Shown here: piece after piece, positions 2,753-64,000 of the stretch
Numbering within the stretch: the first letter of the stretch is position 1
How the letters are laid out: each line of letters starts with the position of its first letter
Assembly: GCA_963743305.1 (NCBI GenBank)
Contig: CAVUPH010000013.1
Span: forward strand, 160,001 to 224,000
Reading direction: 5' to 3'
DNA: 64,000 nt
Source: an uncultured delta proteobacterium
GTDB lineage: Bacteria; Desulfobacterota; RBG-13-43-22
Program-made: the position numbers and the translations under genes
Notes under the pieces: model-generated
The model's input: the letters and a program-made list of their open reading frames with translations, nothing else
The model's database searches: none
Told to the model about the DNA's origin: nothing

Positions 2753-2755
2753 GCT

Positions 2756-9954: not shown

Positions 9955-9958
9955 TTTC

Positions 9959-10222: not shown

Positions 10223-10231
10223 TGCCCCGGG

Positions 10232-10263
10232 AAAAAGCCCTGGGCCCCCTCAGGGCTTTTTTT
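10232..10263 (+). terminator. Intrinsic terminator
   Basis: AAAAAGCCCTG-ggccccct-CAGGGCTTTTTTT. Confidence 0.85.
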
Positions 10264-10302
10264 GTTTGACGAACAACTTTTTTACTTGATGGTGATTAGG
10301 TT

Positions 10303-11898
10303 ATGCCTGTTAATGCTCCCTATACCCAAACCGGTCAGATCGCCAGGAAGTTTCAGCAGGCCGGTTTGGGACTGAAAGAGATGCTGTCCTTAATCGAGAT
10401 GACCTGGGAGGATAACCCCCAGGAATCTCCGCTGCTCCCTTCCAGTCAGGTCTTCGCGGATTTGGACCAACTGATCCGTCACACCGCCCAAGGCAGCCGG
10501 ATCAAGCGGTTTCGGGCGGTTGACCGGAAGCATCCCTTTCAGGCCTTCGAGGTCTATACGCGGGAAGGGGAGATTTTGGGGTACCTGAATATGCTTTACT
10601 TCCGGAAACCGGTTCCCTGTTATTACCTGGTTTACGTGGAAATCGACCATCCTTTCCGGGGTCAGGGCCTGGGAGGTCGGATCGTTGAAGCCTTCAAGGA
10701 GCTGGTGGAGAGCAAGGGCGCTCTGGGTTTACTCGACAACATCATTCCTCCCGATGATCCTACCTTTGATCTCTACACCAAGTTGGGCTGGAAACCCGTG
10801 GAGGCCTTTACCGGGACGATGGTGGGTCAACCCTCGGGACACTATCTGTTCTATCGTCCCGCTTCGATGAAGGTCAACAATCTGACCGAAAAACTGCCCA
10901 AGCTGCTTTTCAATCTCCAGAAGAAACGGCCGGTCATTGAGATGCGGGATAATGAGGAGATGGTCAAAAGGACCATTCGGGAATTCAACCAGATCTACCT
11001 GGCTTTGGAAAAACTGTTTCAGGAGGAACTTCGCCAAGGCCAGAGTACCCCCTTGATGCGATTTATGTTTACCAAATTCACCACCCGATTTTTGCATTTT
11101 CGCCGAAAAATTCAGGACCTGCTGGGCTATACGGGGGGTGAGTCTCTGGAGCAAATTGCTTTTTCCGATTCGGTCAAAGGGTTGGTCATCCAGGCGTACA
11201 GTTTTAACTGGGAACCGGGTCTTACGGTCAAGTCTTTTACCGAAGCGTCTCTCTGGAACAGGCTCCCGGAAGAGATTCGAAAAAATCCCACCCGGGCCAT
11301 CGAAGGACTTCCCTTGTACTGCCGGCCGTACCTGCGGGAATGGCTTCGAAAAACAGGCCGAAAGGAACCTCTGACCCTGACCATCGGCGATTTGCTGGAC
11401 CTGGGTTTTGACCCCACCCGACTTCGGGAAATCGTCCTCCAGGAAGAAGTTTTCATGTTGGAAAGAGTCACGCCGTTGTTGTTCGCTGAAACCGAGGCTC
11501 GGGAGGCCGTCTTGAGAAAGGCGGGTCAGAAGGCCTCAAACTCCCGGATCCATGGTTCGCGGCTGCTGGTCAATCCCCCCCTGTTATGGATTAAGGAGCG
11601 GGGCAACGGCTATATTCTCAGAAAAAAGATTCCGGGTATCCACGCCGAAGAGGCCTTGTCGCAACTGCGAAGTCGGGAAGCCTTAAAAGATCTGAACCGG
11701 CAATTGCGGGTGGATAAAACCATTGAGCGGACCATCGGCGCGGTTCAGGACTTTTTAAAGTCCCACCTCCGGCTACCGGCCCTTTTGGCCCCGGCCGATT
11801 TAGCGGTTTTTGTCCCCTGGGATTTGCAGAGTAATCGACCGCTGGTCGCGATCGATGACCGGCTGCAGCCCTACCTGGAACAAGTCTGGCTGGCATGA
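10303..11898 (+). CDS. GNAT-domain protein with long uncharacterised C-terminal region
   Basis: Acetyl-CoA-binding motif A VEIDHPFRGQGLG and LYTKLGW; 531 aa. Confidence 0.8.
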   Translation: MPVNAPYTQTGQIARKFQQAGLGLKEMLSLIEMTWEDNPQESPLLPSSQVFADLDQLIRHTAQGSRIKRFRAVDRKHPFQAFEVYTREGEILGYLNMLYFRKPVPCYYLVYVEIDHPFRGQGLGGRIVEAFKELVESKGALGLLDNIIPPDDPTFDLYTKLGWKPVEAFTGTMVGQPSGHYLFYRPASMKVNNLTEKLPKLLFNLQKKRPVIEMRDNEEMVKRTIREFNQIYLALEKLFQEELRQGQSTPLMRFMFTKFTTRFLHFRRKIQDLLGYTGGESLEQIAFSDSVKGLVIQAYSFNWEPGLTVKSFTEASLWNRLPEEIRKNPTRAIEGLPLYCRPYLREWLRKTGRKEPLTLTIGDLLDLGFDPTRLREIVLQEEVFMLERVTPLLFAETEAREAVLRKAGQKASNSRIHGSRLLVNPPLLWIKERGNGYILRKKIPGIHAEEALSQLRSREALKDLNRQLRVDKTIERTIGAVQDFLKSHLRLPALLAPADLAVFVPWDLQSNRPLVAIDDRLQPYLEQVWLA

Positions 11899-11991
11899 GA
11901 TCAATGATTAAAAATCAATTGTCAATTATTAGCGGTGTTCAATTCAATCTTCGTATTAAACGCCCAAGAAGAAAGCAGTCCTTAAAATGGC

Positions 11992-12020
11992 TTGACAGTC
12001 GAAGAGGGGTTTATTAGTAT
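11992..12020 (+). promoter_or_regulatory. Putative sigma70 promoter for tadA-tRNA-Ser
   Basis: TTGACA-17 nt-TAGTAT. Confidence 0.5.
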
Positions 12021-12063
12021 AAAAAATTTACAAATTAAGCCGTCGCGGGAGAAGGCTGAGGGG

Positions 12064-12531
12064 TTGGGATCCGAGGGCCGGTGGTTCTGGGAACGTCTGA
12101 TGGGCGAGGCCCTGGATCAGGCTCGGGAGGCTGCCCGGCTGGAGGAAGTCCCGATAGGCGCCATCCTGGTAGGCAACGGAGGTGAACGGCTGGCCGCCGC
12201 TTCCAATCATCCCCGGGGACTGGCGGACCCCACGGCCCACGCTGAGATAATCGTTTTGCGCCGAGCGGCCCGGGAACTTGATAATTACCGGCTTCCCGGG
12301 ACCACTTTAGTCGTAACGGTTGAACCCTGTCTGATGTGTGCCGGGGCCCTGATTCAGGCCCGGGTAGCCCGGATCGTTTTTGGGGCCTTTGATCCGAAAG
12401 CCGGGGCCTTGGGTTCTTTGTATGATCTATCCTTGGATCAGCGGTTAAATCATCGCCTGGAGGTGATCCCGGGAATTCGGGAAGCCGAGTGTCGTGAGCT
12501 GATTCAGGGTTTTTTTAAGACGCGAAGATAA
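12064..12531 (+). CDS. tadA: tRNA adenosine(34) deaminase
   Basis: EVPIGA, DPTAHAE, TVEPCLMCAGA, DPKAGALGS, LNH; start uncertain (TTG 12064 or ATG 12100). Confidence 0.93.
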   Translation: MGSEGRWFWERLMGEALDQAREAARLEEVPIGAILVGNGGERLAAASNHPRGLADPTAHAEIIVLRRAARELDNYRLPGTTLVVTVEPCLMCAGALIQARVARIVFGAFDPKAGALGSLYDLSLDQRLNHRLEVIPGIREAECRELIQGFFKTRR

Positions 12532-17180: not shown

Positions 17181-20100
17181 TCAGGCCGGAATTACCCGGC
17201 GGAGATCCGGGTTTTTTCCTCCTGAACCCTGCACAGTAAAATTCCTGAACCAGGTTACCGAATCCGCTTTTGTCCAGAGACCGGGATGCCCTTTTAAGGG
17301 GGTGGCCGTCTCATAGGTCAAAATCGGATCTTCATCCAGATACCCCGTTATGGCCCGACCGTTTATTTTCACCTTCAAGGCGTACCAGCGATCGGATTCG
17401 ATTTTCTTTGGACTCGCCGCCCGATTAAACCGTCGGTGATTTTCATATTCAAAAAGAACCAGATTGTCCTCCAGGGCGTTCAGACGCCAGACAAAATAAT
17501 TGCCGAGGCTTCGAAGGCCGAAGGCGATTCCCCCGGCCCGATCGATATGGCCGCCGGTAGCGATCACTTCCACCTGAATCGTCCCTTCTTCCAGCTCAGT
17601 GTCTCTGGCTATAATCAAGGGGAAATAGTAGTAAGCTTCCATCCGGTCTAAAAAATCCTGGAGCCGGGGACCCGTCACTTTTCCCAGCAGTTTGGCCAGT
17701 CCGGTGGAAATTCGGAATCCGGCTCGGCTGCCGTCCTGGAGAATCGCCGGGACCCCTTCGAATTCCTTCTCCTCCCAATTACCCTCTTGAATATAAAAAC
17801 CGGGGAGTTGGTCCTGCCGGTCGCGGGAAAGAAAATCGTAGTCCCCCTGGAAAAAGCGATCGGCCAGGCGTTCCACCTCTTCGGGTCGGTTCAGGGCCAT
17901 GTCCAGCAGGCGGGTAGAGGCCAGTAGCCGGCCCAGTTGGTCCAGTTTGGCTTCGAGAGGTTTCCGGTCAAACCCGGTCAGGGCGGCCTCCAGGAGGTCA
18001 CCCTGGACCGATACTTCGAAACCCAGCCGTTTCAGGACCAGGTCAAGAAAGAGGACCCGGAGCGACCGGCCGAGAAAATTACCGGCTCCCCCGGAAAACC
18101 GCAGGGAAATGTAATTCTGACTTCCCTGGTCCCCGCAGAGCGTATCCAAATTGGCAAAATGGTAGCCGAAGCGGGCGCTAAGGTTCAAATAATCTTTGGA
18201 CAGAAAGGCGTAACTCTCTCCGCCGGGGACCTCGCCGAACTCGGAGGTGGCGCTGGAGGCCATGAGGCTGAGAAAGCTCTTGGGGTCGAATTGAATGGTC
18301 CCTTTCCAGGTGATGCCGGGATGGGTGAAGCCTTTCCAGAGGGCCTTCATCGGTACGGACTCGATGTGGTCGGGCACGACTGTTTCGCAATCGGTCAACC
18401 CGAATTTCAATCCGCCGCCCAGGTCAATCAGGTTGAGGATCAGGGGGATTCCGGTCTTCAGCCTTACGGAGATGGTGTGATTATCGAGGGAGTCTCCCAA
18501 CCCGAACATTTCTTTCATGGCCAGTTCGTGGGTGAAGCGGATCAGGTCATGGATGGTCCGGCAGCCCTGCGGGGAGAAGGACGGGGACTGGGGATCGGTC
18601 AGTGAGAGGGGTGAGATAGTATCCAAGAGGTCCCGCAGCCTTCGGCTGACCGGGCTGTCCAAAAAAGGCCGGCCGGCCAAAGTCCTGAGAGACGGCCGGG
18701 CCTCATCCAATCCCTCGTAGACGGTCGCCGAGTCGGCATCCAGGGTAACCGGGGTCCCCTGGGGGATGGTTGTGGAGGCTCCCCTGGCCCCCACGATCAA
18801 AGGGATGGCGAATTCCCGGGCTACCGAGGCCAGATGGCTGGTAACACTTCCCATTTCCGTGACCAGGCCGTTGACCCGCCCGGCCAGGCGGGCATATTTC
18901 GGGGAAGCGGTCGGGGCCACGAGGATAACCCCCTCTGGAATGGAGGACAGTTCGTCCTCCCCTTTAAGGACCCAGGCCGGGCCGGTCGCCACCCCGGGAG
19001 AAGCGGTTCTGGCCGCCGGAAAAAATGACCGGCAGATCAGGTGTGGCCTCGGGGGCCAGGGTTTTTTCCCCGGATTCCAGGAAATGGAGCGGCCGGGACT
19101 GGAGTAGGAATAGTTTTCCCTCGAGATCCTGGGCCCACTCCACATCCTGGGGGCGCCCGAAAAATGTTTCCAGCCGCAACCCGTAGTCCGCCAGGCGCAA
19201 CACCGTTTCATCCGTCAGGGCCGGTTGTTCCCATTCGGTTTCTGGGACTTCCTCAATCCCGGTTCCGCCCTCCGGAAGTCCCACCAGACGCCGCTTTTTC
19301 CGGGAAATGGTCCGGGATACTACCGTCCGCTTTTGACGGTCCACTCCGAAGGAATCCGGCACCGTCTGCCCGCTGACCAGTTCCTCCCCCAGGCCCCAGA
19401 CAGCAGACACCTCCAGCCGATCGGCCTCCGGATCGGAAAGGTCCCTGGTGTACATCACCCCGCTGGATTTCGGGCGAACCATGACCAACCCGGCCACGGC
19501 CATGGGCAGATCTGCATCTTCCAGACCCCGCTGCCAGCGGTACCAGATGGCTCGAGGAGAATATTTACCGGCCAGAACGGTTTTATAGGCCTCCAGGAGG
19601 TTGTCCCGACGGACGTTCAGCACCGTGGTAAATTGACCGGCAAAGCTGGCTTCCGTGTCCTCTCCAATGGCGCTGCTCCGCATGGATATTGAAACGTTCG
19701 GCTCGGTCCGATTTTCCAGGGAGCCATAGGCCTGGAGAATCGCCGAGGCAAGGGCGGCCGGCATTGGGCTGTTCCGGATTTTGTCCTGCAGGGTCAGGCT
19801 GACGGCATCCAGATCGGCGGCATCCTCCGGATCCAGGTGGAAAAGCTTTTCTGTTATCGTGGCTTCCAGGCCGTTTTCCGACAGGAAATAACGGGCCCCG
19901 TCGGCCGTTACGGCAAACCCGTCCGGGACCGGCAGGCCCAGTTCCTTTTTTATAAGCCCCAGGTTTCCGGCTTTCGCCCCGACCAGCCCGAGTTGGTCGG
20001 CGTCGATCTCATCCAGGGAGAGGATATAAACGTCAGCCGAAGAAACCCGGGGAAGGGCCAGCGGTTTTTCGACTTCTCCCCTGATCCGGTTGAAAACCGC

Positions 20101-20379
20101 TTCCAGGTCGGTGAATCTATCCCCGACCAGTTCTTGGAAGGTCTGCAGCAAGCCCTCCGCCGCGGTTAACAGGGCCTGGGCCTTTTCCCGGACTCTGGCC
20201 GAGGTAAAGGGGCGGCCGCTGAAGTGCATCTGTTCCAACTCGGCCAGCAGGCCGAGGGAGGTATGATTGAAGTCCAGGAATTCCTTGAACCGGCGGTAGC
20301 GATCCACCTGGCGGCCGTCCTGATTGACCAGCAGGGTGCAGACATCCGGTTTGGAAAAAAATTTGAAAAGATTTTTCAT
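17181..20379 (-). CDS. PEP/pyruvate-binding (PPDK_N) + phosphohistidine swivel domain protein with C-terminal DUF1080-like domain; one frameshift near 19011
   Basis: GAKAGNLG, VPDGFAVT, RSSAIGED..ASFAGQF, SGVMYT, QDVEWA, LLQSRP; after the shift TASPGVATG, GSVTSHLASVARE, VTLDA; C-terminal GGIAF..YFVWRLNALEDN..GLWTKADS. Confidence 0.8.
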
Positions 20380-20453: not shown

Positions 20454-21764
20454 TTAAATTATACCCAACAGTCTTCCTAAAAGTCCAATGGCTCCAGCCG
20501 AAATGATTACCGTGATCATCCCCACGCGGAGCCATTGCAGGGCGACGAAGGAAGCAAGGCCTATGACTATTCCAAACCAATTGACTTCACCAGGTGCCGG
20601 AAAGAGGACCTGGATTCCGAACCAGACAGCCAGATTGAGAACCACCCCGACGACCGCGGCGGTGATGGCCGAGAGGACGGCGGATAGTCTTTTATTTCCT
20701 CTAAATTTCTCTATGTAGGGGCCTCCTAACATGATGAATAAGAAAGAGGGGAGGAAGGTAAAATACGTGGCGATCAGGGAGCCGATGAGCCCGGCCCAGA
20801 TTGGATTTAAAGCTCCCGGATTATTCCATCCCGCCATGAAACCGATAAACTGGACCACCATGATTAAAGGGCCGGGAGTGGTTTCAGCCAACCCCAGCCC
20901 GTCAATCATCTGGGGGCCGGTCAACCAGGCAAATTGCTCCACCCCGGCCTGGGCGATGTAGGCTAAGACCGCGTACGCACCGCCAAAGGTTAGAAAAGCG
21001 GCCTTGGTAAAGAACAATCCCTCGGTGACAAAGACAGGATTTGGAATTAAGATCAGCCCTCCCATGGGGATAATCCAGAGCGTCAGAAACACCAGAATTA
21101 GAATAATACTCCGTTTCATGGAGGGTTCGATATGGCAAGGGAGGTCTATCTCACAGTATTGGACATAAGCCTCCTCAGAATCGCCATCCTTTTCCTTAAT
21201 GACGTCGAATTTCTTAGGAAGGTAAAGCCTTCCTAAGAATCCTGTCAACCCGGCCCCCAGGACGATGACAGGGAAGGGGACCTTAAAGAAGAAAATCGTG
21301 ATGAAGGCGACAGCCGCCAGGGCTATCAGGGTCTCATTTTTTAAGGCCTTCTGGGCAATCTTAATGACGGCGGCGGCCACAATGGCCAGGACGGCCGGTT
21401 TGAGGCCGCTGAAGACCGCGGCGATCCAGGAGATGTTCCCATAAACGCCATAAACCAGGCTGAGGCCGAAAAGGATAAAGATGGAGGGGATGACAAAAAA
21501 ACTTCCTGCCACCACACCCCCCGGTATTTTATGCAGCAGCCACCCTATATAGATGGCCAACTGCTTGGCTTCCGGGCCCGGCAGCAGCATGCAGTAATTG
21601 AGGGCCTGGAGGAACCGGGTGTTGGAGATCCAATTCCTTTTTTCCACCAGTTCCTGGTGCATGATGGCAATTTGACCGGTCGGCCCGCCGAAACTGATGA
21701 AGCCCAGCTTCAGCCAGAATTTGAAGGCTTCCCGAAAGGAAGGGTGGGGCGTCGGTTCGATCAC
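20454..21764 (-). CDS. chrA: Chromate efflux transporter (long-chain CHR)
   Basis: KLGFISFGGPTGQI, LLPGPEA, TFGGAYAVL, AETTPGP duplicated CHR motifs. Confidence 0.95.
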   Translation of the reverse strand: MIEPTPHPSFREAFKFWLKLGFISFGGPTGQIAIMHQELVEKRNWISNTRFLQALNYCMLLPGPEAKQLAIYIGWLLHKIPGGVVAGSFFVIPSIFILFGLSLVYGVYGNISWIAAVFSGLKPAVLAIVAAAVIKIAQKALKNETLIALAAVAFITIFFFKVPFPVIVLGAGLTGFLGRLYLPKKFDVIKEKDGDSEEAYVQYCEIDLPCHIEPSMKRSIILILVFLTLWIIPMGGLILIPNPVFVTEGLFFTKAAFLTFGGAYAVLAYIAQAGVEQFAWLTGPQMIDGLGLAETTPGPLIMVVQFIGFMAGWNNPGALNPIWAGLIGSLIATYFTFLPSFLFIMLGGPYIEKFRGNKRLSAVLSAITAAVVGVVLNLAVWFGIQVLFPAPGEVNWFGIVIGLASFVALQWLRVGMITVIISAGAIGLLGRLLGII

Positions 21765-21765
21765 C

Positions 21766-21834
21766 TTATTTCCCAGTAACTTTCAGATCATCAAAGTGAC
21801 TTCGGGCATCGGCCTTGGTCCAGAGCCCTATTTT
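21766..21834 (-). pseudogene. C-terminal remnant of a DUF1080-like gene
   Basis: KIGLWTKADARSHFDDLKVTGK-stop resembles HPGLWTKADSVTWFRNFTV at the end of the 17181 ORF; its stop abuts the chrA start. Confidence 0.6.
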
Positions 21835-23087
21835 GTTGATGTTTTGGGGACCGGCATATCCCGCCCCCAAACGGCGAAACCCACGGTGCCGATGATCCCA
21901 AAGACGAAGGCCATGATGAAATTCACCTCCGGGCTGATTTGCCATAGAAACGCGCCTCCCAGGGCGGCGGCGGATACAAAGACGTCTCGGATCAGGTAGT
22001 AGAGCCCGAACATGCCCGCCTGGCAGCTTTTGGGGGAGAGATCCATGATCAGGGATTTGCGGGTGGGCTCGCCGAACTCCTTGAGGCCCCGGAGGATAAA
22101 GGCCAGGACCAGCCATTCGAAGGAGCGGCTATAAAGTAAGACCAAGGGGAAAAAAGTGAAAAATACAAAGGTCGTGAGAACAAAAGGCTTCTTGTGGCTC
22201 CGATCCGCCAAGTAGGCCACCGGGATATAGACCAATACCGCCGTGGCCATCTCGATCGTCGTCAGGAGGCCGAACTGAAGGGCCGACACCGGATCGGCGA
22301 TGGTCTTCAGACACCAGACTACCACGAAGGCGTAGGGGATCTGCTCGCAGAAGCGGATCAGGATGTCGGTAATCAGGAGCCCTTTCATGGCCGGGTTCAT
22401 CAGCCGCAGTAGTCTCAGCGGATTTTTTTCCGGGGAAAGTGTGCAGGCCTCCCCCGAGGATTTCGTGGCGGACCGGTCGTCGGCGAGCAGTCTCTGTTGC
22501 AGGACCAAGGCTACCCCGGCCAGGACCAGCGCCGCCTCAAAGGCGAGACGAACCCCGTCACGTTCCCCCCAGAGGCTAATAAAGACTCCGCCGACCAATG
22601 GCCCCAGGGCCATGGGGACGCGGCGCACCAGCGAGTGCATGGTCACCCCCATGGTCCGTTTGTTTTGGGGCAGCACCCGGTACATCAGGCTCATGGTGGC
22701 CGGCAGCGAGATGGCCGACCAGGAGATGAAAAGCACCGCTCCGGCCAACACCGCCTGCCAGGCGGGGATCACGATCACCAGGGAAAAGCCCGCCATGGCC
22801 ACCAAGTTGAAAACCAGCAGGGAACGCTTGGTTCCGATGCGGTCGGCGAGGTAGCCGCCGGGAAAGCTGTAAAGGGCCGAGAGCAGGTTATCCATGGCCT
22901 GGAGCAGCCCGATGGCCAGCACGCCGCCCCCCAGGGCCATGAGGTAGATGGGCAGAAAGCGCTCGCCCATCCGCTCGCCCATCCCCACCAGCACCACCAT
23001 GGCCAGTAATCCGACGGTGCTGCGCTGCAGGGCGAGGAATCCGGTGATCCGGGCGGTGCGGGTGGAGGCGGGGTCCGGAGACGGCAT
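21828..23087 (-). CDS. MFS transporter
   Basis: Motif A GGYLADRIGTKR and repeat AYLADRSHKK; about 12 TM helices. Confidence 0.92.
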   Translation of the reverse strand: MPSPDPASTRTARITGFLALQRSTVGLLAMVVLVGMGERMGERFLPIYLMALGGGVLAIGLLQAMDNLLSALYSFPGGYLADRIGTKRSLLVFNLVAMAGFSLVIVIPAWQAVLAGAVLFISWSAISLPATMSLMYRVLPQNKRTMGVTMHSLVRRVPMALGPLVGGVFISLWGERDGVRLAFEAALVLAGVALVLQQRLLADDRSATKSSGEACTLSPEKNPLRLLRLMNPAMKGLLITDILIRFCEQIPYAFVVVWCLKTIADPVSALQFGLLTTIEMATAVLVYIPVAYLADRSHKKPFVLTTFVFFTFFPLVLLYSRSFEWLVLAFILRGLKEFGEPTRKSLIMDLSPKSCQAGMFGLYYLIRDVFVSAAALGGAFLWQISPEVNFIMAFVFGIIGTVGFAVWGRDMPVPKTSTK

Positions 23088-23090
23088 GGA

Positions 23091-24062
23091 TTATCCTTTG
23101 CGTCTTTGGAAATAAGTATACAAATTTTCATATAAACGGATGCCCTCCTCCAGGCGTTGATCGTCGTCCGGATGAGACGAGACCAGTCCGGTCAATAAGG
23201 CTCGGAAGCCGTCCGTTTCACGACGGTTGAATTTATCGTCCTTTAAGTCGATGTCGTGGACGATCTCGGCCAGCGGTACCAGACCCCGGTCCTGGAATTG
23301 GCATCGCCCGATCATCACCTCAAAAGTACACCGGTCCCCTTCGTGGGTGAATTCTCCGTCGAACAGGTCGAAACGAAGTTCCCCGGGCTGCGGGGTATAA
23401 TGGGGGCCGCGGACGAACTTGAAGACCGCTTTTGGGTCGATAAAGCGCCTGATCAACCATCCGCAGGCCAGACGATCCACAAAGAGGTTTTTCCGGGTCA
23501 CCCAGGTTTTTCCCTGCAGCCGGTCGACCTGCTCCAGACTGCCAGGCGCCGTCAAGGGCTCACCGGCAACTTGGGTTTCCAAGTTCAGGAGCAGGGCTTC
23601 CGCGGTTCCCCGTTCGGGCGTTTGAAAGAAGTCGATGGCGAAGACCTCGTCCAATCGGCGCCGCAGCCGGGAGACCCGGGCCGGTCCCTTCAGCGCCGGG
23701 TCCCTCGGGTCGTCCGGCCCGGAAGCCCGGGCCGTGAACAACTCCCGGGCCTCCCGGATAATGTTTTCGTAATCGAACCGGCGGGCGCCTTGAAAAAGGG
23801 CGATGATCTGGTCGTCAGCCAGGCCTTCCAGAAACCGCGCCTCCGAGATGGACCCCTCCCCGCCGCCCTCGACGATCTCTTTGAGTATCCAGTTCAAGTC
23901 TTCCCGTGAGTGTTCGGAAGGGGGTAAGGCATAGACCGATTGTTTTAGCGCCACGGCGCCCACCTGCTGTAACCGGCGCCAGATTTTCACCCGTAGGGCG
24001 TTGGGCTTGGGGGGAAGTTGATGGATTAAAAGCAACCACTTTTTCGAGTCATGGGGGTTCAA
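23091..24062 (-). CDS. chrB: Chromate resistance regulator ChrB
   Basis: N-terminal WLLLIHQLPPKP..RVKIWRRL; C-terminal WVTR..VDRLACGWLIRRFID, FTHEGDRCTFE, IVHDIDLKD; TTG start with AGGAG RBS. Confidence 0.92.
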   Translation of the reverse strand: MNPHDSKKWLLLIHQLPPKPNALRVKIWRRLQQVGAVALKQSVYALPPSEHSREDLNWILKEIVEGGGEGSISEARFLEGLADDQIIALFQGARRFDYENIIREARELFTARASGPDDPRDPALKGPARVSRLRRRLDEVFAIDFFQTPERGTAEALLLNLETQVAGEPLTAPGSLEQVDRLQGKTWVTRKNLFVDRLACGWLIRRFIDPKAVFKFVRGPHYTPQPGELRFDLFDGEFTHEGDRCTFEVMIGRCQFQDRGLVPLAEIVHDIDLKDDKFNRRETDGFRALLTGLVSSHPDDDQRLEEGIRLYENLYTYFQRRKG

Positions 24063-24082
24063 TAGAGACTCCTGATAACAAG

Positions 24083-24103
24083 TGTTACTTATATAATGTA
24101 ACA
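24083..24103. promoter_or_regulatory. Palindromic operator candidate upstream of chrB
   Basis: TGTTAC-TTATATAAT-GTAACA, 20 nt upstream of the chrB start. Confidence 0.5.
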
Positions 24104-24202
24104 TCAATAACAATTAGTCAAGGGTGATTCCCAGTAAGTTTTGAAATTGATTCGCAGGAGTCCGTCAATCGATGGTTTTTGAGGGGGGATTAAAAAGAGC
24201 AC

Positions 24203-27601: not shown

Positions 27602-28174
27602 GTGAGTGAAACCGTGAAAAATCCAATGATTGAAGTGCGCATTCATGGCCGGGGAGGGCAGGGAGCAGTGACTTCGGCGGAGCTGATGGCCTTGGCGGCC
27701 ATCGACGAAGGAAAATACGCTCAGGCTTTTCCCAGCTTCGGCCCGGAACGCCGAGGCGCGCCGGTGGTGGCCTTTCTAAGAGTCAGTGATGATCAGATTC
27801 GGATTAGGTCCAAGGTCTATCAACCCGACGTGGTGGTGGTCTTGGATCCCACCTTGTTGGATATTGTGGACGTTTCCGCCGGGCTGAAACCCAAAGGAAC
27901 CGTGATTATTAATTCAGCCAAAAGCGCCGAACAGATCCAAAAGCAATACGGCTTTAAAGGGCGACTGGCGACCGTGGATGCGACGAAAATTGCGATGGAG
28001 GAAATGCGGGTCCCGATTACCAATACGACCATGCTGGGGGCCTTGATCAAGGCAACCGGCATGACCCGGTTGCCCTCCATGGAAAAACCGCTCAAGGCCC
28101 GCTTCGGCAAGATAGCGGAGCGCAACCAAAAATCCATGCAGCGGGCCTATGAAGAAACCGCGATAAGGGAGTAA
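27602..28174 (+). CDS. porC: Pyruvate/2-oxoacid:ferredoxin oxidoreductase gamma subunit
   Basis: EVRIHGRGGQGAVT, FGPERRGAPV, NTTMLGA; start may be 27614 or 27626. Confidence 0.92.
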   Translation: MSETVKNPMIEVRIHGRGGQGAVTSAELMALAAIDEGKYAQAFPSFGPERRGAPVVAFLRVSDDQIRIRSKVYQPDVVVVLDPTLLDIVDVSAGLKPKGTVIINSAKSAEQIQKQYGFKGRLATVDATKIAMEEMRVPITNTTMLGALIKATGMTRLPSMEKPLKARFGKIAERNQKSMQRAYEETAIRE

Positions 28175-28178
28175 ACCG

Positions 28179-28475
28179 GTGGCGAAGATTGATGCCTTGA
28201 TGCCTTGGAGGGAGGTGCCTTTGGGAGGCGCCATCCTGGAACCGGGCAATGCCAGGAAGTTTAAGACCGGAGACTGGCGGTCCAAAATCCGCCCGGTCAC
28301 CGATCGGGAAAAATGCATTAAATGCGGAATGTGTTGGGTGTTTTGTCCGGATATGGCCTATGCCCACCGGGAAGACGGCTATTTCGACTGGAATAGCGAT
28401 TACTGCAAAGGTTGCGGTATTTGCGCCCGGGAATGTCCCAAAGAGGCCATTCAGATGGTTGCGGAGGAAGAATAG
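28179..28475 (+). CDS. porD: Oxidoreductase delta subunit (2x4Fe-4S)
   Basis: KTGDWRS..P, CIKCGMCWVFCP, YCKGCGICARECP. Confidence 0.93.
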   Translation: MAKIDALMPWREVPLGGAILEPGNARKFKTGDWRSKIRPVTDREKCIKCGMCWVFCPDMAYAHREDGYFDWNSDYCKGCGICARECPKEAIQMVAEEE

Positions 28476-28477
28476 CT

Positions 28478-29656
28478 ATGGCCAAACGAGTCGGCATGGA
28501 GGTTTCCATTGCCATCAGCGAAGCGGTGAAGTTGGCCAATGTGGACGTTATTTCGGCCTATCCCATCACGCCCCAGACCCATATCGTGGAGCACCTTTCC
28601 GAATTTGTCAATGACGGGGAACTGCAGAGCGCTTTCATCCCGGTGGAGTCGGAGCATTCAGCCCTGAGCGCCGCCGTGGGGTCCTCGGCCGTGGGTGCCC
28701 GGACCTTCACGGCCACCAGTTCCCAGGGACTGGCCCTGATGCACGAGATCATGTTCGTGGCTTCCAGCCTGCGTCTGCCTATCGTCATGTCCGTGGTCAA
28801 CCGGGCCTTGTCGGCGCCGATCAATATCTGGAATGACCTGAGCGATATCATGACCGAGCGGGATACCGGCTGGGTCCAGCTTTTTGCCATCAACGGTCAG
28901 GAGGCCTTCGACCTGACCTTGCAGGCGTTTAAGATCGCCGAAGACCCGAGGGTTCTGCTTCCAGTGGCCGTCAACCTGGACGGGTTTATCCTCAGTCACG
29001 TGATTGAGCCCATCGAACTGTTGGATCAGCAGGAAGTGGATCAATTCCTGAGTCCCTTCCAGCCGGTGCTGCGCCTCGATCCGGACAAGCCCGTTTCCCT
29101 GGGCGCCTTTGGCAGTCCGGACGTCTTTATCGAGGTCAAGAAACAGATCGAGGAAGCCTTGATCGGCTCCCAGAAGGTGGTGGCCGAGGTCTGGAAGGAT
29201 TTCGGCCGGCTCTTTGGACGAAACTACAAGCCCGTGGAATCCTATAGAACCCAGGACGCCGAAACGTTGCTGATCACCATGGGCAGCATCAGCGAAACCG
29301 CCATGATGTCCGTGGATGCCCTGCGGGAGAAGGGGCAGAAGGTGGGGCTGATCCACATCCGACTCTGGCGGCCTTTTCCTTTTAAGGATTTTCTCCAGGC
29401 GATCAAGGGGGCCAAGGTCCTGGCGGTCCTGGATCGCGCCCTGGTGCCCGGGGGGGTCGGCGGGCCGGTGGGCCTGGAAGTGAAAGCCGCCCTTTATGGA
29501 AAGGCCGAACGGCCCTACGTGGCCGAATTTGTGGCCGGGCTGGGCGGCCGGGATTTGACGGTGGAGACCTTCATCGAGGTGCTGGACAAAGCCGGACGCT
29601 ATGCCCTAAAACAAAAAGACTTTCAATACGAATTGATCGGGGTGCGCGAAAAATGA
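28478..29656 (+). CDS. porA: Oxidoreductase alpha subunit
   Basis: AYPITPQT, VESEHSA, TATSSQGL, NRALSAP, GLGGRD. Confidence 0.93.
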   Translation: MAKRVGMEVSIAISEAVKLANVDVISAYPITPQTHIVEHLSEFVNDGELQSAFIPVESEHSALSAAVGSSAVGARTFTATSSQGLALMHEIMFVASSLRLPIVMSVVNRALSAPINIWNDLSDIMTERDTGWVQLFAINGQEAFDLTLQAFKIAEDPRVLLPVAVNLDGFILSHVIEPIELLDQQEVDQFLSPFQPVLRLDPDKPVSLGAFGSPDVFIEVKKQIEEALIGSQKVVAEVWKDFGRLFGRNYKPVESYRTQDAETLLITMGSISETAMMSVDALREKGQKVGLIHIRLWRPFPFKDFLQAIKGAKVLAVLDRALVPGGVGGPVGLEVKAALYGKAERPYVAEFVAGLGGRDLTVETFIEVLDKAGRYALKQKDFQYELIGVREK

Positions 29657-30639
29657 TTGCCGAGGATCTGAAAGAGTTCAAGAAATTTACGCCCAAGACC
29701 CTTCCCCGGGAAGAACCCCTGGTCTCCGGTCACCGGGCCTGCCAGGGTTGCGGGGAAGTGCTGGCCTTGCGCCTGGTGGCCAAAGCCATCGGCACGCCCA
29801 TGATCGTCGTCAGCGCCACGGGCTGCATGGAGATCATTTCCTCCCCCTTTCCCCAGACCGCCTGGGACGTGCCTTGGCTCCACGTGGCCTTTGAAAACTC
29901 CGCCGCCGTGGCTTCCGGGGTCGAGGCCGGGTTGAAAATCCTGATGGAGAAAAAAAGGATCCCGCAAAAGTCGATCAACGTCGTGGCCTTTGCCGGGGAT
30001 GGGGGTACCGCCGATATCGGCCTTCAGTCCCTTTCCGGGGCCATGGAACGGGGCCATAATTTTGTGTATGTCTGCCTGGATAACGAAGCCTATATGAACA
30101 CCGGTATCCAGCGTTCCAGTTCCACCCCCTTCGGGGCCATGACCACCACCTCGCCGGCCGGCAAGGTGATCGCCGGGCAAACCACCTGGAAAAAGAATAT
30201 GCCGGCCATCATGGCGGCCCATAATATCCCTTACGTGGCCACGGCTTCGCCGGCCTTTTACCTGGACCTGATGAACAAGGCCAAAAAAGCCTCGATGATC
30301 AAAGGCCCGGCCTATCTCCATGTCTATGCCTCCTGCCCCACGGGCTGGCGGCACGGATCGGATCTGGCCATCGAAGTGAGCCGGAAGGTGGTGGAGACGA
30401 ATATCTTTCCCTTGTATGAAATTGAAGAAGGAAGATATACGGTCCGCAAGAATAACAATCCTAAACCGGTGGAGGAATATTTTAAACAGCAGCGGCGCTT
30501 CGCTCACCTGACGCCGGAGATGTTCAAGATGATCCAGGACCGAACGGACAGGGATTACCAACGCTTGCTACAGATGGAAGCTTTGACCAACCCGGCCGCC
30601 GTTAAAAAGGAAGAACCGAAGGAGAAAGCGGCCGGATAA
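29653..30639 (+). CDS. porB: Oxidoreductase beta subunit (TPP-binding)
   Basis: GHRACQGCG, GDGGTADIG, DNEAYMNTGIQRS, CPTGW. Confidence 0.93.
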   Translation: MIAEDLKEFKKFTPKTLPREEPLVSGHRACQGCGEVLALRLVAKAIGTPMIVVSATGCMEIISSPFPQTAWDVPWLHVAFENSAAVASGVEAGLKILMEKKRIPQKSINVVAFAGDGGTADIGLQSLSGAMERGHNFVYVCLDNEAYMNTGIQRSSSTPFGAMTTTSPAGKVIAGQTTWKKNMPAIMAAHNIPYVATASPAFYLDLMNKAKKASMIKGPAYLHVYASCPTGWRHGSDLAIEVSRKVVETNIFPLYEIEEGRYTVRKNNNPKPVEEYFKQQRRFAHLTPEMFKMIQDRTDRDYQRLLQMEALTNPAAVKKEEPKEKAAG

Positions 30640-58310: not shown

Positions 58311-58487
58311 AGTTACTGCGGTAGTAGCGATAGCGGTATGCTCGCCTTCCCAGCCAACCGGACCGGGGAAGACATTCTTAAAAAAATGCTTAAAACCAAC
58401 AGCCCTCCCAGGGGCCCCGGCGAATATTTTGGTTCAATTTAGCCGTTCGCATTATCTTTGGAAATAAATAGAATTGAGGAGTTTTCT

Positions 58488-60674
58488 ATGGCCACCCGTG
58501 TTTCTAAAATCGTCCTGTCACCCAATGCCCAAATCGTCTTAAACAAACGCTACCTGCGGAAAAACGACAAGGGGCAGGTGATCGAGAAACCGGAGGACAT
58601 GTTTCGCCGGGTAGCCCGGGTGGTGGCCTCGGCCGACGCCCTCTACGGGAAGAAGACCCAGGTTAAGAAGAGCGAGGAAACCTTTTTTCGGATGATGACC
58701 CAGTTGGAGTTTATGCCCAATTCTCCGACCCTGATGAATGCCGGCCGCCAACTGGGACAGCTCTCCGCCTGTTTTGTTCTCCCGGTGGAGGATTCGATTG
58801 ACAGCATCTTTGAGGCCATCAAACAAACGGCCATTATTCATAAAAGCGGCGGAGGGACCGGCTTTTCCTTTTCCAGAATTCGTCCGGAAAAGGATACGGT
58901 CAAATCCACCCACGGCATTTCCAGCGGCCCCATTTCTTTCATGACCGTTTTTGATGTGGCCACCGAGACCATTAAGCAGGGGGGGACCCGGCGGGGGGCC
59001 AACATGGGACTGCTCCGGGTGGACCACCCGGATATTGAAAAGTTTATTGAAGCCAAGCTGCAGACCGACCGCCTGAATAATTTCAATATTTCGGTCCTCA
59101 TCCCGGATGCCTTTATGGAGGCCCTGGAAAAGGATCAGAACTATGACCTGGTCAATCCCCATACCGGTAAGGCCGTTCGCTCCGTTTCCGCCTTGTCCAT
59201 TTTTAACAAGATCGTCCATTCCGCCTGGCGCAGCGGAGAACCGGGAGTGGTGTTTATCGACCGGATCAACCGGGATAACCCGACGCCGCATCTGGGACCC
59301 ATCGAGGCCACCAATCCCTGCGGGGAACAGCCCCTGTTGCCCTACGAGTCCTGCAACCTGGGGTCTCTCAACCTGGCCCGGATGGTGAAAAAGGGCAAAG
59401 TGGATTTCGAAAAGCTGCGCGGCACTATTCAGGAAGGGGTCCATTTTCTGGATAACGTCATTGATGTGAATAAATACCCCCTGCCGGAGATCGAAAAAAT
59501 GACCCGGGGCAATCGTAAAATCGGCCTGGGTTTGATGGGCTTTGCCGATCTGCTGATCCAGGTGGGGGTTCCCTACAACTCGGAGCGGGCCGTGGAACTG
59601 GCCGAGCAGATCATGGAATTCATTCAGACCGAGGCCAGAAAATCTTCGGCCCAATTGGCCCGCGAGCGGGGAAATTTCCCCAATTTCAAGGGAAGCATTT
59701 ATGATCCGGGGCGGAAGGCCAAGGCCTACATGCGCAACGCCACCGCCACCACCCTGGCCCCCACCGGGACCATCAGCATCATTGCCGGGGCCTCCAGCGG
59801 CATTGAACCCTTGTTTGCCGTCTCTTACTATCGAACAGTGCTGGACGGAACCCGAATGGTGGAGGTTAATCCCTATTTCAAAAAAGCGGCCAAGGAGAAG
59901 GGCTTTTACCGGCCCGAACTGATGGAGGAGATTGCCAAAGAAGGCTCCCTCAAGCACCTGGAAGGGATCCCGGAGGAGTTGAAAACCCTGTTTGTCACCT
60001 CCCACGATATCGACCCGGAATGGCATATACGCATCCAGGCGGCTTTTCAGCGGCACACGGACAACGCCGTCTCCAAGACCATCAATTTTCCCGAGGAAGC
60101 CACCCCGGAGGAAGTCAAGACCGCCTATTTGCTGGCCTACCGGGAGGGGTGTAAGGGGGTCACCATCTACCGTTACGGGAGCCGGGAAACCCAGGTGCTG
60201 AATCTGAGCAAGCCGGCGGAAGGCCCGAAGATCAATCCCCGCCCCCGGCCGGACCGGACCAACGGGGTCACGGAACGGATCAACACCGGCTGCGGGAAGC
60301 TGTATGTAACCATCAACGAGGATGAAAAAGGGTATTGCGAGGTCTTCGCCCAGATGGGCAAAACCGGGGGCTGCGCCTCGTCCCAGATCGAGGCCACCGG
60401 CCGATTGATTTCCCTGGCCCTGCGCTCCGGGATCTCCATGGGTTCCGTTATCCGGCAGCTTTCCGGGATCCGCTGCCCCTCTCCGGCCTGGGTCAACGGC
60501 CACCAGGTCCTCTCCTGCCCGGATGCCATCGGCCGGGTGATCGGCAACTACACCCAGATCGAGACCTCCGAAAGCGGATCGCTGATGGGTTCCTGCCCGG
60601 ATTGCGGCGGTCAGGTGGTCCACGAAAACGGCTGTCTGAACTGCCATTCCTGCGGATTTTCCAGGTGCAGTTAA
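58488..60674 (+). CDS. nrdJ: Vitamin B12-dependent (class II) ribonucleotide reductase with TSCPD and zinc-ribbon tail
   Basis: [66 protein letters not shown]. Confidence 0.95.
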
Positions 60675-60767: not shown

Positions 60768-61754
60768 TTAGTCTGCCACCACGGGAAAATATATCTTAAA
60801 CCCTTCTGAAGCGATCCCGTCCAGCGCATCCGTCGTTCCAGAAAGTTGCGTCGTCCAGGTTATCCCGGTAGGGGAAGTCTTGATGATACCCAGATCCCCT
60901 ACGGCCACGAAAAGGTTTTTTTGAAAGGTTACCCCAAACAAGTCATTCAGCGTTCCGGAGTTTTGCCCGACCCAAGTGGCGCCATCGGAAGAAGTCAGGA
61001 TGGTTCCGTTGGCTCCTACGGCCACGATTTGATCCTTCTGGGAAGCTACTCCCCATAAAAAGCTATTGGTCCCCGACGTCTGGGGAGTCCAGATCTGACC
61101 ATCGGGCGAGGTCACTATGGTCCCCTGGTCTCCAACAACGACAATCTTTCCACTGCCAAAGGTGACCGCGGACAGGAACTCCACGGTATTCGAGGTTTGA
61201 AGGGTCCAGGTCACCCCATCGGAGGAGGTTAGAATGGTTCCGTTGTTTCCCACGGCCACAAAAAGGCCATTGGCAGACCCGACTCCGAAAAGGGCAGAAG
61301 TGGTCCCCGAGGTCTGCGAAGCCCAGGTCACCGCATCCGGGGAGGTTAAGACGGTTCCGGTCCCCAGGAAATAGTTAAAACCCACTGCCACAAAAATTCC
61401 ATTTCCATAGGTTATCCCAAATAAGGTGCTGTCGGGATCGCCGGAATTCTGGGGGGTCCACGTGATCCCATCCTCGGAAGTTACTATGGTCCCCAGGTCT
61501 CCAACGGCCACGAATTTTCCTTCTCCTCGGGTTACCCGCCATAGTTTTTGTGCGGCATTGGAGGTCCTATCGATCCAGACCTCTCCCGTGTCGGAGGTGA
61601 TAATCTTCGCCGGGTCTGCGGCCGCGTCATCTTCGATCGCTACCAAAAAGGCGGCCTGAACGGGTTCCCGGAGGACAAAGGAACCCAGCAACAGGATCCC
61701 GAGCCAGACCACAAAGGTCTGCCAGCCAAATCTTCTGATGTTTCTCTTAACCAT
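60768..61754 (-). CDS. Secreted beta-propeller repeat protein (BNR/YCF48-like)
   Basis: Signal peptide; about seven 39-aa repeats L..V.....FVAVG..GTI.TS.DG.TW..Q.SGT; GGAGG RBS. Confidence 0.85.
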   Translation of the reverse strand: MVKRNIRRFGWQTFVVWLGILLLGSFVLREPVQAAFLVAIEDDAAADPAKIITSDTGEVWIDRTSNAAQKLWRVTRGEGKFVAVGDLGTIVTSEDGITWTPQNSGDPDSTLFGITYGNGIFVAVGFNYFLGTGTVLTSPDAVTWASQTSGTTSALFGVGSANGLFVAVGNNGTILTSSDGVTWTLQTSNTVEFLSAVTFGSGKIVVVGDQGTIVTSPDGQIWTPQTSGTNSFLWGVASQKDQIVAVGANGTILTSSDGATWVGQNSGTLNDLFGVTFQKNLFVAVGDLGIIKTSPTGITWTTQLSGTTDALDGIASEGFKIYFPVVAD

Positions 61755-61792: not shown

Positions 61793-62834
61793 TTAGGTGA
61801 CATTGATAAAAGTCTGCACGGTTCCCAGGACCTTGCCGGTAATCCAGTGACGGTACTGGAGGGTTGCCCGATAGGTCTTCGGAAATGGCGGCGGCTTGAT
61901 GATCAGATCCCAACGTTGCGCCGTGGACAAAACAAAAGGGTAATTGGCTCGGAGCTTGAAGGGGCTGGAATACTTAGACGCGGGAGTCCCGCCCAAAGGC
62001 CGGCCATCCATGGCGACGACCGTTACCGGCAGTCCGATGGTCCAGCGGTTCAGGGTATACCCGGCATTGGTCAGGCGGAGGAGTATGGTCTGGCCGGCCT
62101 TGATAGTAATGGCCACCCGGGGATCGGTAACGGGCGTATTCGGGGCGATCGAAAGGCCGTTCATTAAGAAATAATCCGGTTGAAAATCGTGCAAAATGCC
62201 GTCATTGGTAAAAGGACCGTTGGAGCTGCAACCCGCCATAAAGGCATTATGCGTCAGGGAATGCCAGCGGCTGTCAATCTCATCGGGAAGCCCAGAAGGC
62301 CTCGACGTCATAAGCGGGTCCTCCGGTGAAGGCCGTTCCCGGTCCGGTGGGAGGATCGATAATCAATAAACCGTACAGGCCCATTTCAAAATGAAGGACG
62401 GTGTTTTTATGGCAATGATACGTATAGGTACCGGCGTGACTGGCATACCATTGATAGGTATAGGAATTGGGGAATTCAAAGGACATCTTTCCTACCCCGT
62501 CGTTCATGGGGGTCGGCTCGATACCGTGGTGATGGATCGTATGGGTATTGCCCTTTACGTTGGTAATGGTATGGACCACCTGCCCCTCGTTAACCCGAAT
62601 CATGGGAGACGGAAAGGTGGTGGGCAAATTGGGATCGGCGATAACCCACATGCGCACCGCCCTTCCATCCCACATGGTTACATCGAAGTCGATCTGCAAC
62701 TCCCGCGTGAAGGTTCTATCGGGGACGACGCGGTCAGGTGTCGGACCGCTGAATGTCGGCGGGCAAATGAATTTTATGAAATCCTCTTCCTGGGCCGGGG
62801 TAACAGGTTCACGAGGGATTATGGCGATCGGCAT
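61793..62834 (-). CDS. Two-domain multicopper oxidase subunit (copper ligands in domain 1 only); frameshift near 62287
   Basis: HTIHHHG, YHCHKNTVLHFEMGL; EAFW joins PDEIDSRWH..YFLMNG..ILLRLTNAG..AMDGRP in the adjacent frame; AAGGAG RBS. Confidence 0.82.
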
Positions 62835-62885
62835 TAGCGCTCCTTTTGGGCCGACTCCGGGGTGGGAGGCCCGCCACTCTTATGA

Positions 62886-64000
62886 TTATTTAGGGAAATC
62901 AACCGGTCCTCCCGGGAGGGTGATGTCCCCGGTGATCTCCCAATCCGTCACCATCCCCAGCGGATAGTTGCCGCCGGCGGCAGTCTGCGACATCTCCGTG
63001 TGATCGTGCATGGGAAAACCCAAGGGGGACTGGCGTACTCCCCCCAGGATTAAATTCAATTCCTCGGTCGGAGGCCAATTAGCCGCCGGGGGGATATCCG
63101 GAGGTTTAATAAAGGGAAGCAGCCAATCCATGCGCTGCATAGGTCTCACGAGGAAAGTATCGACCAAAAAGATATTTTTTTGCACCAGACCATTCAGGGC
63201 CAGCACATAGACATGGTTGCCATGGATATGCAGCGAATGGATCGCCAGGCCGGCATTGAGGATCCGAATCAAGGCCGGTTCTCCGACACGGCCCTCGGGG
63301 GCGGTATCCGGATTCTTGGCGGAAAAAAATCCGGATCGGCCGTTAATGGTAAAATAGCGGGGTAAGAAATTTTGTTTAAGGTCGGCCGGAGAGATAAACT
63401 GGTTATTCAGGGCCAGGGTATTGAAGTTGGGATCAATGTTGTTCAACAGCCAAATCCAGTATCGGGCGGGATTCCAGGGGTTTCCGGGAAAGTGGGGTGA
63501 ATTCCCCAGGTCATTGAACAGAGACTGGGCATTGGGCGTGGGAGAACTGTAGGGTGTGTTCCCTGAAACCGGACTGACGATCATGGCCCCCTGCAAGCCC
63601 AGGACCCGATTAACCGGCGCGTTCAAGGGATCGAGATAAAGATAGGTGCCGGCCTTGGGCGCGGTAAAGGTGATGACCTTACTTTCTCCGGGCAGGATCG
63701 GACCGCTGTCCACCACCCCGGGGATGGAAAAGGCGTGCGGTTCGTCCAGAGCGTTGGTCAACTTAACGGTGATCGGGTCGCCCTCGTTGGCCAGGATGAT
63801 GGGACCGGGAACCCGAGGACCTAAGGTTGGTGTCTGAAAGGCCCAGAAGTAAACCTGTGTAAAATCGACCATCTCGATGATGGCCTCGCTGAAGGTCAGA
63901 TCAACGGTCTGGGCGGCCGCCAGGGCCTCTGACTCCCGAAAGATCTTGGGTATCCCGGCGGGTGCATTGACGAGGATGGCGGCCAAACCGGTCAGGCCGT
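62886..64000 (-). CDS. Two-domain multicopper oxidase-like subunit (copper ligands in domain 2 only); 5' end outside window
   Basis: RVPGPII.ANEGD, KAGTYLY, YFTING, IRILNAG, HSLHIHGNH, PMHDH; frame open to the window edge. Confidence 0.85.
   Translation of the reverse strand, partial: GLTGLAAILVNAPAGIPKIFRESEALAAAQTVDLTFSEAIIEMVDFTQVYFWAFQTPTLGPRVPGPIILANEGDPITVKLTNALDEPHAFSIPGVVDSGPILPGESKVITFTAPKAGTYLYLDPLNAPVNRVLGLQGAMIVSPVSGNTPYSSPTPNAQSLFNDLGNSPHFPGNPWNPARYWIWLLNNIDPNFNTLALNNQFISPADLKQNFLPRYFTINGRSGFFSAKNPDTAPEGRVGEPALIRILNAGLAIHSLHIHGNHVYVLALNGLVQKNIFLVDTFLVRPMQRMDWLLPFIKPPDIPPAANWPPTEELNLILGGVRQSPLGFPMHDHTEMSQTAAGGNYPLGMVTDWEITGDITLPGGPVDFPK

Follow-up and report, generated by a model that had tools for sequence, protein, structure and literature searches.

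Can two adjacent genes, each of which encodes part of the copper ligands of a multicopper oxidase (MCO), together specify one enzyme? The question is raised by the right-hand end of a 64,000-nucleotide stretch of contig CAVUPH010000013.1 from an uncultured delta proteobacterium (hereafter the window). Here three co-oriented genes on the minus strand encode two cupredoxin-type proteins, which we call alpha and beta, and a propeller-like repeat protein. All positions below are window positions, and all features of this locus lie on the minus strand. The ligands of a complete copper site are split over the two chains, and therefore the working enzyme is predicted to be an obligate alpha/beta heteromer. 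It would probably hold a single type-1/trinuclear copper pair and leave the cytoplasm by hitchhiking through the twin-arginine translocation (Tat) pathway.

The alpha gene (62886..>64000) is in the open reading frame (ORF) list and is cut by the window end. A full-length protein of 379 amino acids, P0003, is 100% identical to the window sequence and shows that just the first nine codons lie outside. Alpha is a two-cupredoxin-domain protein (Cu-oxidase_3, 37.5 bits against a Pfam cut-off of 21). Its domain 1 reads HAFSIPG and YLYLD and has no type-1 or trinuclear-centre ligands. Domain 2 carries two HxH motifs, one in HSLHIHGNH (H263, H266, H268 and H271; 63213..63239) and one in HDHTEMSQ (H340, D341, H342 and E344; 62985..63008, with HDH itself at 63008-63000); H266/H268 and H340/H342 are the proposed trinuclear-centre ligands. 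The alpha stop is followed by a spacer of 51 nt, which holds a Shine-Dalgarno-like AAGGAG (62840..62845, read from the sequence) 5 nt ahead of the beta ATG at 62834.

The first beta ORF (62280..62834, 184 amino acids) encodes an N-terminal extension and cupredoxin domain 1 (Cu-oxidase_3, 48.3 bits, same cut-off). This domain has HTIHHHG (H98, H101 and H103; 62523..62543) and HCHKNTVLHFEMGL (H140, C141, H142, H148 and L153; 62376..62417). In these motifs H98, C141 and H148 are type-1 ligands with L153 at the axial position, and H101, H103, H140 and H142 are trinuclear-centre ligands. Domain 2 of beta is read from a second ORF in the +1 frame (61793..62311) and has a cupredoxin fold without copper-ligand motifs. 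An earlier sequence-only reading of this DNA had quoted these motifs for the two genes, and all of them are present on the minus strand; its downstream gene is not one open frame in the window, being split by an extra C that is considered below.

The same division of ligands is found across a large family. The alpha query and a read-through beta query each matched more than 1300 proteins at E <= 1e-3, and 1.84 billion cluster representatives, scanned exhaustively, contained 1576 matches at E <= 1e-3 and 145 at E <= 1e-30. Conservation was assessed in the 120 best homologues of each subunit and in 78 species-level alpha-beta pairs plus reference rows. In alpha, H266, H268, H271, H340, H342 and E344 are invariant in 120 of the 120 best homologues, and at species level H266, H268, H271, H340 and H342 are kept in 79 of 79 rows (78 loci and one reference). 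In beta, H98, H101, H140, C141, H142 and H148 are invariant (121/121) and H103 is present in 120 of 121 rows. The type-1 site and all four histidines are kept in 76 of the 79 species-level rows, the other three being truncated by contig ends or alignment gaps. The axial position is Leu in 76 and Met in 45 of the 121 rows (Leu 42 and Met 34 at species level). Beta also retains NDGVG after the first motif, with D112 in 79/79.

Conversely, the family alignments show no HxH at the ligand positions of alpha domain 1 or beta domain 2, and HxH occurs anywhere in beta domain 2 in just 7 of 121 rows, at scattered places. Neither chain has all four HxH motifs, and the complete set is found for the pair only. 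Because the ligand columns are invariant across the family, the complementarity is not a matter of chance, and the ligand split between two genes that had been proposed from the window alone holds at the level of the family.

The nearest solved structures are remote (E 1e-9 to 1e-14) and comprise 2zwn, 3g5w, 3gdc and 9cck, plus copper nitrite reductases (NirKs). The best Protein Data Bank (PDB) matches of alpha are two-domain MCOs (2dMCOs) and NirKs, and span both alpha domains. Published accounts describe 2dMCOs as trimers in which two protomers together form the trinuclear centre (PMC13151041), with four His from each protomer (bioRxiv 10.64898/2026.07.28.741245). They are divided into types A, B and C by the place of the type-1 site (PMC13151041; bioRxiv 10.64898/2026.07.28.741245; PMC11761707). 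For 9cck, PMC11761707 describes Cys-His diads that link the type-1 to the trinuclear site at a two-unit interface.

Beta domain 1 aligns with domain 1 of 9cck and 2zwn, HTIHHHG falling on HTIHFHG of the former and HTIHWHG of the latter. Alpha domain 2 aligns with domain 2 of 2zwn, where HSLHIHGNH is matched by HAMHSHGH and the alpha HDH by HDH. Both halves resemble type-C enzymes, beta domain 1 their domain 1 and alpha domain 2 their domain 2. The Asp of the alpha HDH, which the sequence-only reading gave as 'Cys to Asp', is not a defect; it is compatible with a working trinuclear centre because the solved 2zwn has HDH at that place. That description was also only half right for the family: among the 120 best alpha homologues, position 341 holds Cys 95 times, Gly 14 times, Asp 8 times and Ser 3 times, and the 78 species-level loci have Cys 48, Asp 28 and Gly 2 times.

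Type-1 ligands in domain 1, as in type-C enzymes, are found in beta only. Pairwise alignment of the two chains places alpha H97, D132 and N139 opposite beta H98, C141 and H148, respectively (63611..63737, with the H97 codon of HAFSIPG at 63737-63735). H97 and D132 are present in 120 and N139 in 116 of the 120 best alpha homologues, and this triad may be a relic of the type-1 pocket or a site for another metal or a substrate. Alignment of alpha with 2zwn shows a 14-residue deletion where HWHG would fall. HxH occurs within the range of alpha domain 1 in 11 of 120 homologues, and the 10 that were inspected have it in the interdomain linker as W-H-x-H ('IWHxH.IDP'). Carriers of this linker motif include P0005, P0007, P0054 and P0064, in which it aligns to residues ~190-198 of the window alpha, where the latter reads IWLLNNIDP. 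Relative to type-C enzymes, alpha has an extra linker segment of ~70 residues and beta an N-terminal arm of ~40 residues.

Alpha and beta are 25% identical over 265 residues, and are paralogues. A joint tree was calculated for 70 of the 78 pairs, leaving out L014, L015, L035, L036, L045, L066, L067 and L073, in which beta is fragmented or truncated. All alpha and all beta sequences fall on the two sides of a single branch with support of 100, so far as the tree goes indicating that the two subunits derive from one duplication. Distances within alpha and within beta are correlated (cophenetic r = 0.884, matched by 0 of 500 shuffles). Shared ancestry alone yields such a value, and the correlation therefore speaks for co-inheritance, not for co-evolution.

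The two genes also travel together, in line with the linkage that the survey of their co-occurrence was expected to show. A scan of species-representative genomes with an alpha profile gave 207 stretches with a relative, of which 80 loci were kept. In 79 of them the next gene 3' of alpha is a beta with the same orientation, and in the remaining locus (L053) the contig ends 111 nt past alpha. In a plasmid collection searched by reciprocal tblastn, alpha and beta occur in the same three records (four places) and are adjacent in all three. Single chains with alpha followed by beta and with both ligand sets were found as well (P0252, P0253, P0255, P0349 and P0361); they make up 5 of the 19 newly listed representatives of at least 560 amino acids, among the matches listed. 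No fused alpha-beta gene occurs among the 79 genome loci. One contig (L013) has two alpha-beta pairs, at 514-3383 and 9875-12221, the first of which is more divergent (hidden Markov model scores of 347/323 versus 562/581).

The distribution of export signals is equally one-sided. P0003 starts with MERRQFIQ, and its N-terminal stretch reads MERRQFIQYGLTGLAAILVNAPAG...ESEALAAA, a twin-arginine signal whose RR lies nine codons beyond the window. The window itself holds the end of this signal peptide, the hydrophobic core and the Ala-rich ..ESEALAAA (63912..64000). The twin-arginine motif sought past position 64000 was therefore found by way of the identical full-length protein. An RRxF[LI]-like motif in the first 40 residues is present in 106 of 120 alpha versus 0 of 120 beta homologues, and a hydrophobic N-terminal stretch in 101 of 120 versus 0 of 120, which bears out the proposed signal on the upstream subunit and its lack on the downstream one. 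The alpha homologue P0008 carries the Pfam domain TAT_signal (PF10518). Given this distribution, alpha and beta are probably co-exported through Tat hitchhiking.

A two-chain model was calculated at 1:1 for mature alpha (P0003 residues 40-379) and the intact beta of a close relative of the window (L001), with a 25-row alignment for each. The pair scored 0.96 in all three runs, and the best of three controls scored 0.00; 116 of 157 solved complexes attain this mark, as do 2 of 215 mismatched pairs, which are rough counts, our own alignments having been supplied. The runs share at least 98% of contacts, and the predicted local distance difference test (pLDDT) of the partner is at least 94. On alpha the predicted interface is formed mostly by domain 2 (68 of 94 residues), including 260-264, 266, 268-271 and 342-356. 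On beta it is formed by domain 1 residues 101, 103-110 and 112, plus parts of domain 2. The beta N-terminal arm (residues 3-37) lies on alpha 47-57 in the model. The interface picked by the model is the productive one, between beta domain 1 and alpha domain 2, and not the dead one. As had been anticipated, the modelling places the alpha domain-2 histidines next to the beta domain-1 histidines, a result that may reflect no more than likeness to the solved homotrimers.

We hypothesize that a type-C-like ancestor was duplicated once, after which complementary halves of its copper sites were lost in alpha and beta. Beta domain 1 would supply the type-1 site (H98, C141, H148 and the axial Leu) and four histidines (H101, H103, H140 and H142), and alpha domain 2 would supply the remaining four (H266, H268, H340 and H342). 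An eight-histidine trinuclear centre could then be built only between beta domain 1 and alpha domain 2, where it would be wired to the type-1 copper via the H-C-H triad. The heteromer would oxidise a one-electron donor and reduce O2 to water. The complex would be assembled in the cytoplasm and exported jointly via Tat on the signal of alpha. Binding, copper loading, O2 reduction and co-export are steps that we infer from the comparisons and the model. The obligate heteromer proposed from the window alone is supported by ligand conservation, gene order, paralogy, fusions, the distribution of signals and the co-fold, and we consider it likely. The same ligand distribution would exclude a functional homotrimer of either chain.

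Several observations weigh against this reading. The whole case rests on sequence plus one model. Matches to the second domains are sub-threshold, both for alpha (Cu-oxidase_2, 16.5 bits, under the Pfam cut-off of 20.4) and for beta (Cu-oxidase, 17.9 bits, under 21), although Cu-oxidase_3 is above its cut-off in both chains and both count as two-cupredoxin-domain proteins. Solved 2dMCOs are homotrimeric, and with alignments supplied the co-fold result may reflect likeness and not binding. Alpha H340 and beta H140 and H142 are outside the list of confident contacts, although absence from that list means no more than uncertainty. The predicted interface shows no significant enrichment of positions with at least 90% conservation, either in alpha (odds ratio 1.34, p = 0.34) or in beta (odds ratio 1.39, p = 0.36). 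The fused chains could be artefacts of gene calling, the linker of P0252 resembling a read-through spacer. No genes for copper handling adjoin the pair in the window or in L001, and a 1:1 pair cannot close the canonical three-subunit ring. Lastly, the window beta is not one open frame, since its 184-residue ORF ends at a TGA at 62282-62280.

This split is caused by a single extra C, CCC at 62285-62287 in place of CC in an alignment with the DNA of the two closest relatives (L001 and L002). In a blastn comparison with L001 it is the sole indel inside the two oxidase genes. In-frame betas occur among the closest relatives, namely P0123 (344 amino acids), P0124 (348 amino acids) and the L001 beta P0243 (346 amino acids). 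A search with the 184-residue fragment found no identical entry and a best match of 57%, with the proviso that short members may hide in a full-length cluster. The interruption may be an assembly error or a real inactivation, and the window module works only if the insertion is an error.

It is possible, if somewhat unlikely, that the insertion is real and that this module is dead, with beta a recent pseudogene or in two pieces and no functional oxidase here. The frameshift is, after all, present in the given sequence, and a fragmented beta is also found in L027 and L035, two of the 79 other beta-holding loci. Against a dead module, the insertion sits in a homopolymer, and the domain-2 frame past the shift is open for 172 codons and near-identical to the L001 protein, and therefore shows no decay. 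The class II-type ribonucleotide reductase gene that is intact in the window (738 amino acids, 58458-60674) is in two ORFs in L001 (13359-15546), split by a single-base indel at a place corresponding to window position 59167. Single-base errors therefore occur in these related assemblies, and an assembly error is a plausible cause of the split in beta. Even with a real frameshift, beta could still be made as two polypeptides, one from each half: the domain-2 ORF starts with an ATG (62311-62309), and a GGAGGA (62324-62319) lies 8 nt ahead of it. In L001 and L002 these bases are part of the normal coding sequence.

The identity of the reaction is a separate matter. A real heteromer could carry out nitrogen-oxide or hydroxylamine chemistry, like the related two-domain enzymes NirK or Nmar_1354, and not act as a laccase or metallo-oxidase that reduces O2. 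Among PDB entries, beta is matched best by 9cck (Nmar_1354, E = 5e-14), a protein that oxidises hydroxylamine according to PMC11761707, and many of the weaker matches are copper nitrite reductases. We regard such chemistry as improbable. The ligand pattern is an eight-histidine trinuclear set and not the three-histidine type-2 site of NirK, and the two chains reach 31.1 and 38.9 bits with the NCBIfam model Cu_nitrite_red (TIGR02376), far from its cut-off of 296.3. No nitrogen-cycle genes lie beside the pair in the loci examined, and Nmar_1354 itself retains a trinuclear centre.

It is more improbable still that there is no joint site at all, with alpha acting as a periplasmic copper-binding or chaperone-like protein and beta as a cytoplasmic cupredoxin electron carrier, the two being merely co-regulated. 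Each chain alone does retain potential metal ligands, beta has no export signal, and copper chaperone genes adjoin the pair in some lineages. Yet it is difficult to account for an exact complementarity of four HxH motifs over hundreds of homologues unless the centre is shared, and the invariant H-C-H triad of beta has no role without type-3 coppers. Strict adjacency, the fusions and the confidently predicted productive interface also argue against independent functions. Finally, a programmed +1 frameshift that regulates beta is scarcely credible and was rejected: the shift is indeed +1, with a stop codon two codons on, but L001, L002, P0123 and P0124 (86-98% identical proteins) are in frame at the site, so that it is not conserved among the closest relatives, and no slippery P-site codon fits.

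The obligate heteromer may be a 1:1 heterodimer or a 2:1 or 1:2 ring. A three-subunit ring allows only one beta-to-alpha interface, and therefore a 2:1 or 1:2 ring would contain a single centre and leave one half-site unsatisfied. A 1:1 ratio is suggested by the full complementarity of the losses, together with the fusions. We tentatively put forward a more specific version, although we consider it doubtful as a whole: a 1:1 heterodimer whose four cupredoxin domains hold one type-1 and one trinuclear centre, in which the beta arm clamps alpha and H97/D132/N139 form a new metal or substrate site, and which would represent a surviving asymmetric intermediate between the homotrimeric two-domain enzymes and the single-centre oxidases, and the first Tat-hitchhiking copper enzyme. 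A 1:1 heterodimer, if it exists, would be a quaternary architecture that is not known for MCOs, being neither a homotrimeric ring nor a single three- or six-domain chain.

The genes around the pair vary. The carriers are metagenome-assembled genomes of many phyla, including Nitrospirota and Desulfobacterota-type genomes, and cultured organisms such as Neobacillus, Skermanella aerolata, Sphingomonas oleivorans and Salinilacustrithrix flava. A search of 78 loci for a third oxidase subunit or a universal neighbour found none, the largest neighbour cluster being present in 11 of them. A same-strand ORF of at least 80 amino acids starts within 300 nt past beta in 44 loci, and among these are nine SCO1/SenC, three CopC, three CusB-type membrane-fusion proteins and one giant protein with MCO domains. 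Upstream genes include di-haem peroxidases (L022 and L023), a haem peroxidase (L067) and sensor kinases. This neighbourhood fits a copper-loaded extracytoplasmic oxidase, perhaps one that acts on Cu(I) or a different metal ion, as the copper-handling neighbours found in some lineages hint. In six Neobacillus, Bacillus and Paenibacillus loci (L030, L034, L037, L041, L042 and L048) the pair is followed by a CopC-domain gene and a gene for a giant protein of ~1000-1500 amino acids that has multicopper-oxidase domains, and alpha and beta are there ~100 residues longer.

In the window, the third gene of the group (60768..61754) starts 39 nt past the beta stop (61793) and encodes a protein of beta-propeller-like repeats whose N-terminus has a signal or anchor (MVKRNIRRFGWQTFVVWLGILLLG..). 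Its longer ORF has a weak Pfam match to DUF6242 (35.7 bits), and in the PDB the protein is best matched by the designed 'Cake' propellers (E = 8e-8). No promoter-like site or convincing terminator lies between the three genes. The propeller-like gene also lies 3' of beta in the two closest relatives (L001 12222-13265 and L002 12340-13266) and is missing from all other loci compared, being kept solely in the closest relatives of the window.

Elsewhere in the window, the region 17181-20379 (minus strand) has two ORFs with a 248-nt overlap, one of 471 amino acids with PPDK_N and one of 676 amino acids with a PEP-utilizers mobile domain. These may be either a PEP-synthase-like gene broken by a further frameshift or a pair of genes, a start having been misjudged. 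A chromate-resistance-type cluster of a ChrA transporter, a major facilitator superfamily (MFS) transporter and ChrB is encoded at 20454-24113 (minus strand), a 2-oxoacid:ferredoxin oxidoreductase gene set at 27602-30639 and cytochrome c assembly genes at 3759-6049. Together these suggest an anaerobe or microaerophile with metal-stress genes.

In current annotation, alpha and beta are named only 'multicopper oxidase domain-containing protein' or 'hypothetical protein', including in RefSeq, and the ESM Atlas gives generic names only and no structure model for the proteins. NCBIfam has no model for alpha or beta. For three-domain copper-resistance and cuprous oxidases (CueO, CopA/PcoA), the best scores with its models are 58.4 bits for copper_res_A (cut-off 478.95) and 29.4 bits for CueO (cut-off 525), and its CopA, laccase and ascorbate-oxidase models score far under their cut-offs for both chains. 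With each gene annotated generically, activity predictions from either gene alone would therefore be wrong. The full-text literature searched (without subscription journals or preprint supplements) describes no heteromeric two-domain oxidase, and that searched without subscription journals no Tat-hitchhiking copper or multicopper oxidase.

The route by which MCOs evolved from homotrimers of two-domain chains to asymmetric enzymes with a single centre is so far inferred from single-chain and homomeric forms only. If our reading is correct, MCOs would gain a new assembly principle, with a widespread enzyme that is encoded by two genes and whose chains cannot form the centre by themselves. It would also be an example from nature of a duplicated homomer whose copies degenerated in complementary ways, and would predict a new class of Tat hitchhiker.

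The closest known relatives of this system are the type-C 2dMCOs, which include the metagenomic laccase mgLAC (2zwn), the blue copper oxidase of Nitrosomonas europaea (3g5w) and Nitrosopumilus Nmar_1354 (9cck). As in alpha and beta, each of their chains has two cupredoxin domains; domain 1 is the place of the type-1 site and HxxHxH/HCH, and domain 2 that of HxH and H(D)H. Their trinuclear centre is located where domain 1 of a chain meets domain 2 of its neighbour. In type-C enzymes, however, all ligands are in one chain and the homotrimer has three centres, whereas in alpha/beta the ligands are split over paralogues and there would be at most one centre per beta-to-alpha interface.

Asymmetry of this kind is familiar from larger MCOs. 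Ceruloplasmin is a six-domain MCO with a single trinuclear centre in a pseudo-symmetric array of cupredoxin domains. In ceruloplasmin, as in the three-domain laccases and CueO, there is a single trinuclear centre and the other interdomain interfaces are degenerate, and the alpha/beta enzyme would work likewise. Those enzymes are single chains that arose by domain duplication and fusion, whereas alpha/beta would reach asymmetry via two genes that are rarely fused. The Mnx complex of Bacillus spores, composed of MnxG with MnxE/MnxF, is known to work only as a hetero-oligomer, and in being a hetero-oligomeric multicopper oxidase it resembles the predicted alpha/beta enzyme. MnxG holds all of the catalytic coppers and its partners are small non-MCO proteins, whereas the alpha/beta centre would be shared by two MCO paralogues.

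With regard to export, the small and large subunits of hydrogenases and DmsAB are Tat hitchhiker pairs. NxrA/NxrB is also presented as such a pair in PMC3578206. As predicted for alpha/beta, one subunit of these pairs has a twin-arginine signal, and its signal-less partner is probably exported with it in the folded complex. The known hitchhikers are Mo/Fe-S or Ni-Fe enzymes with unrelated subunits, whereas alpha and beta would be paralogous subunits of one copper enzyme.

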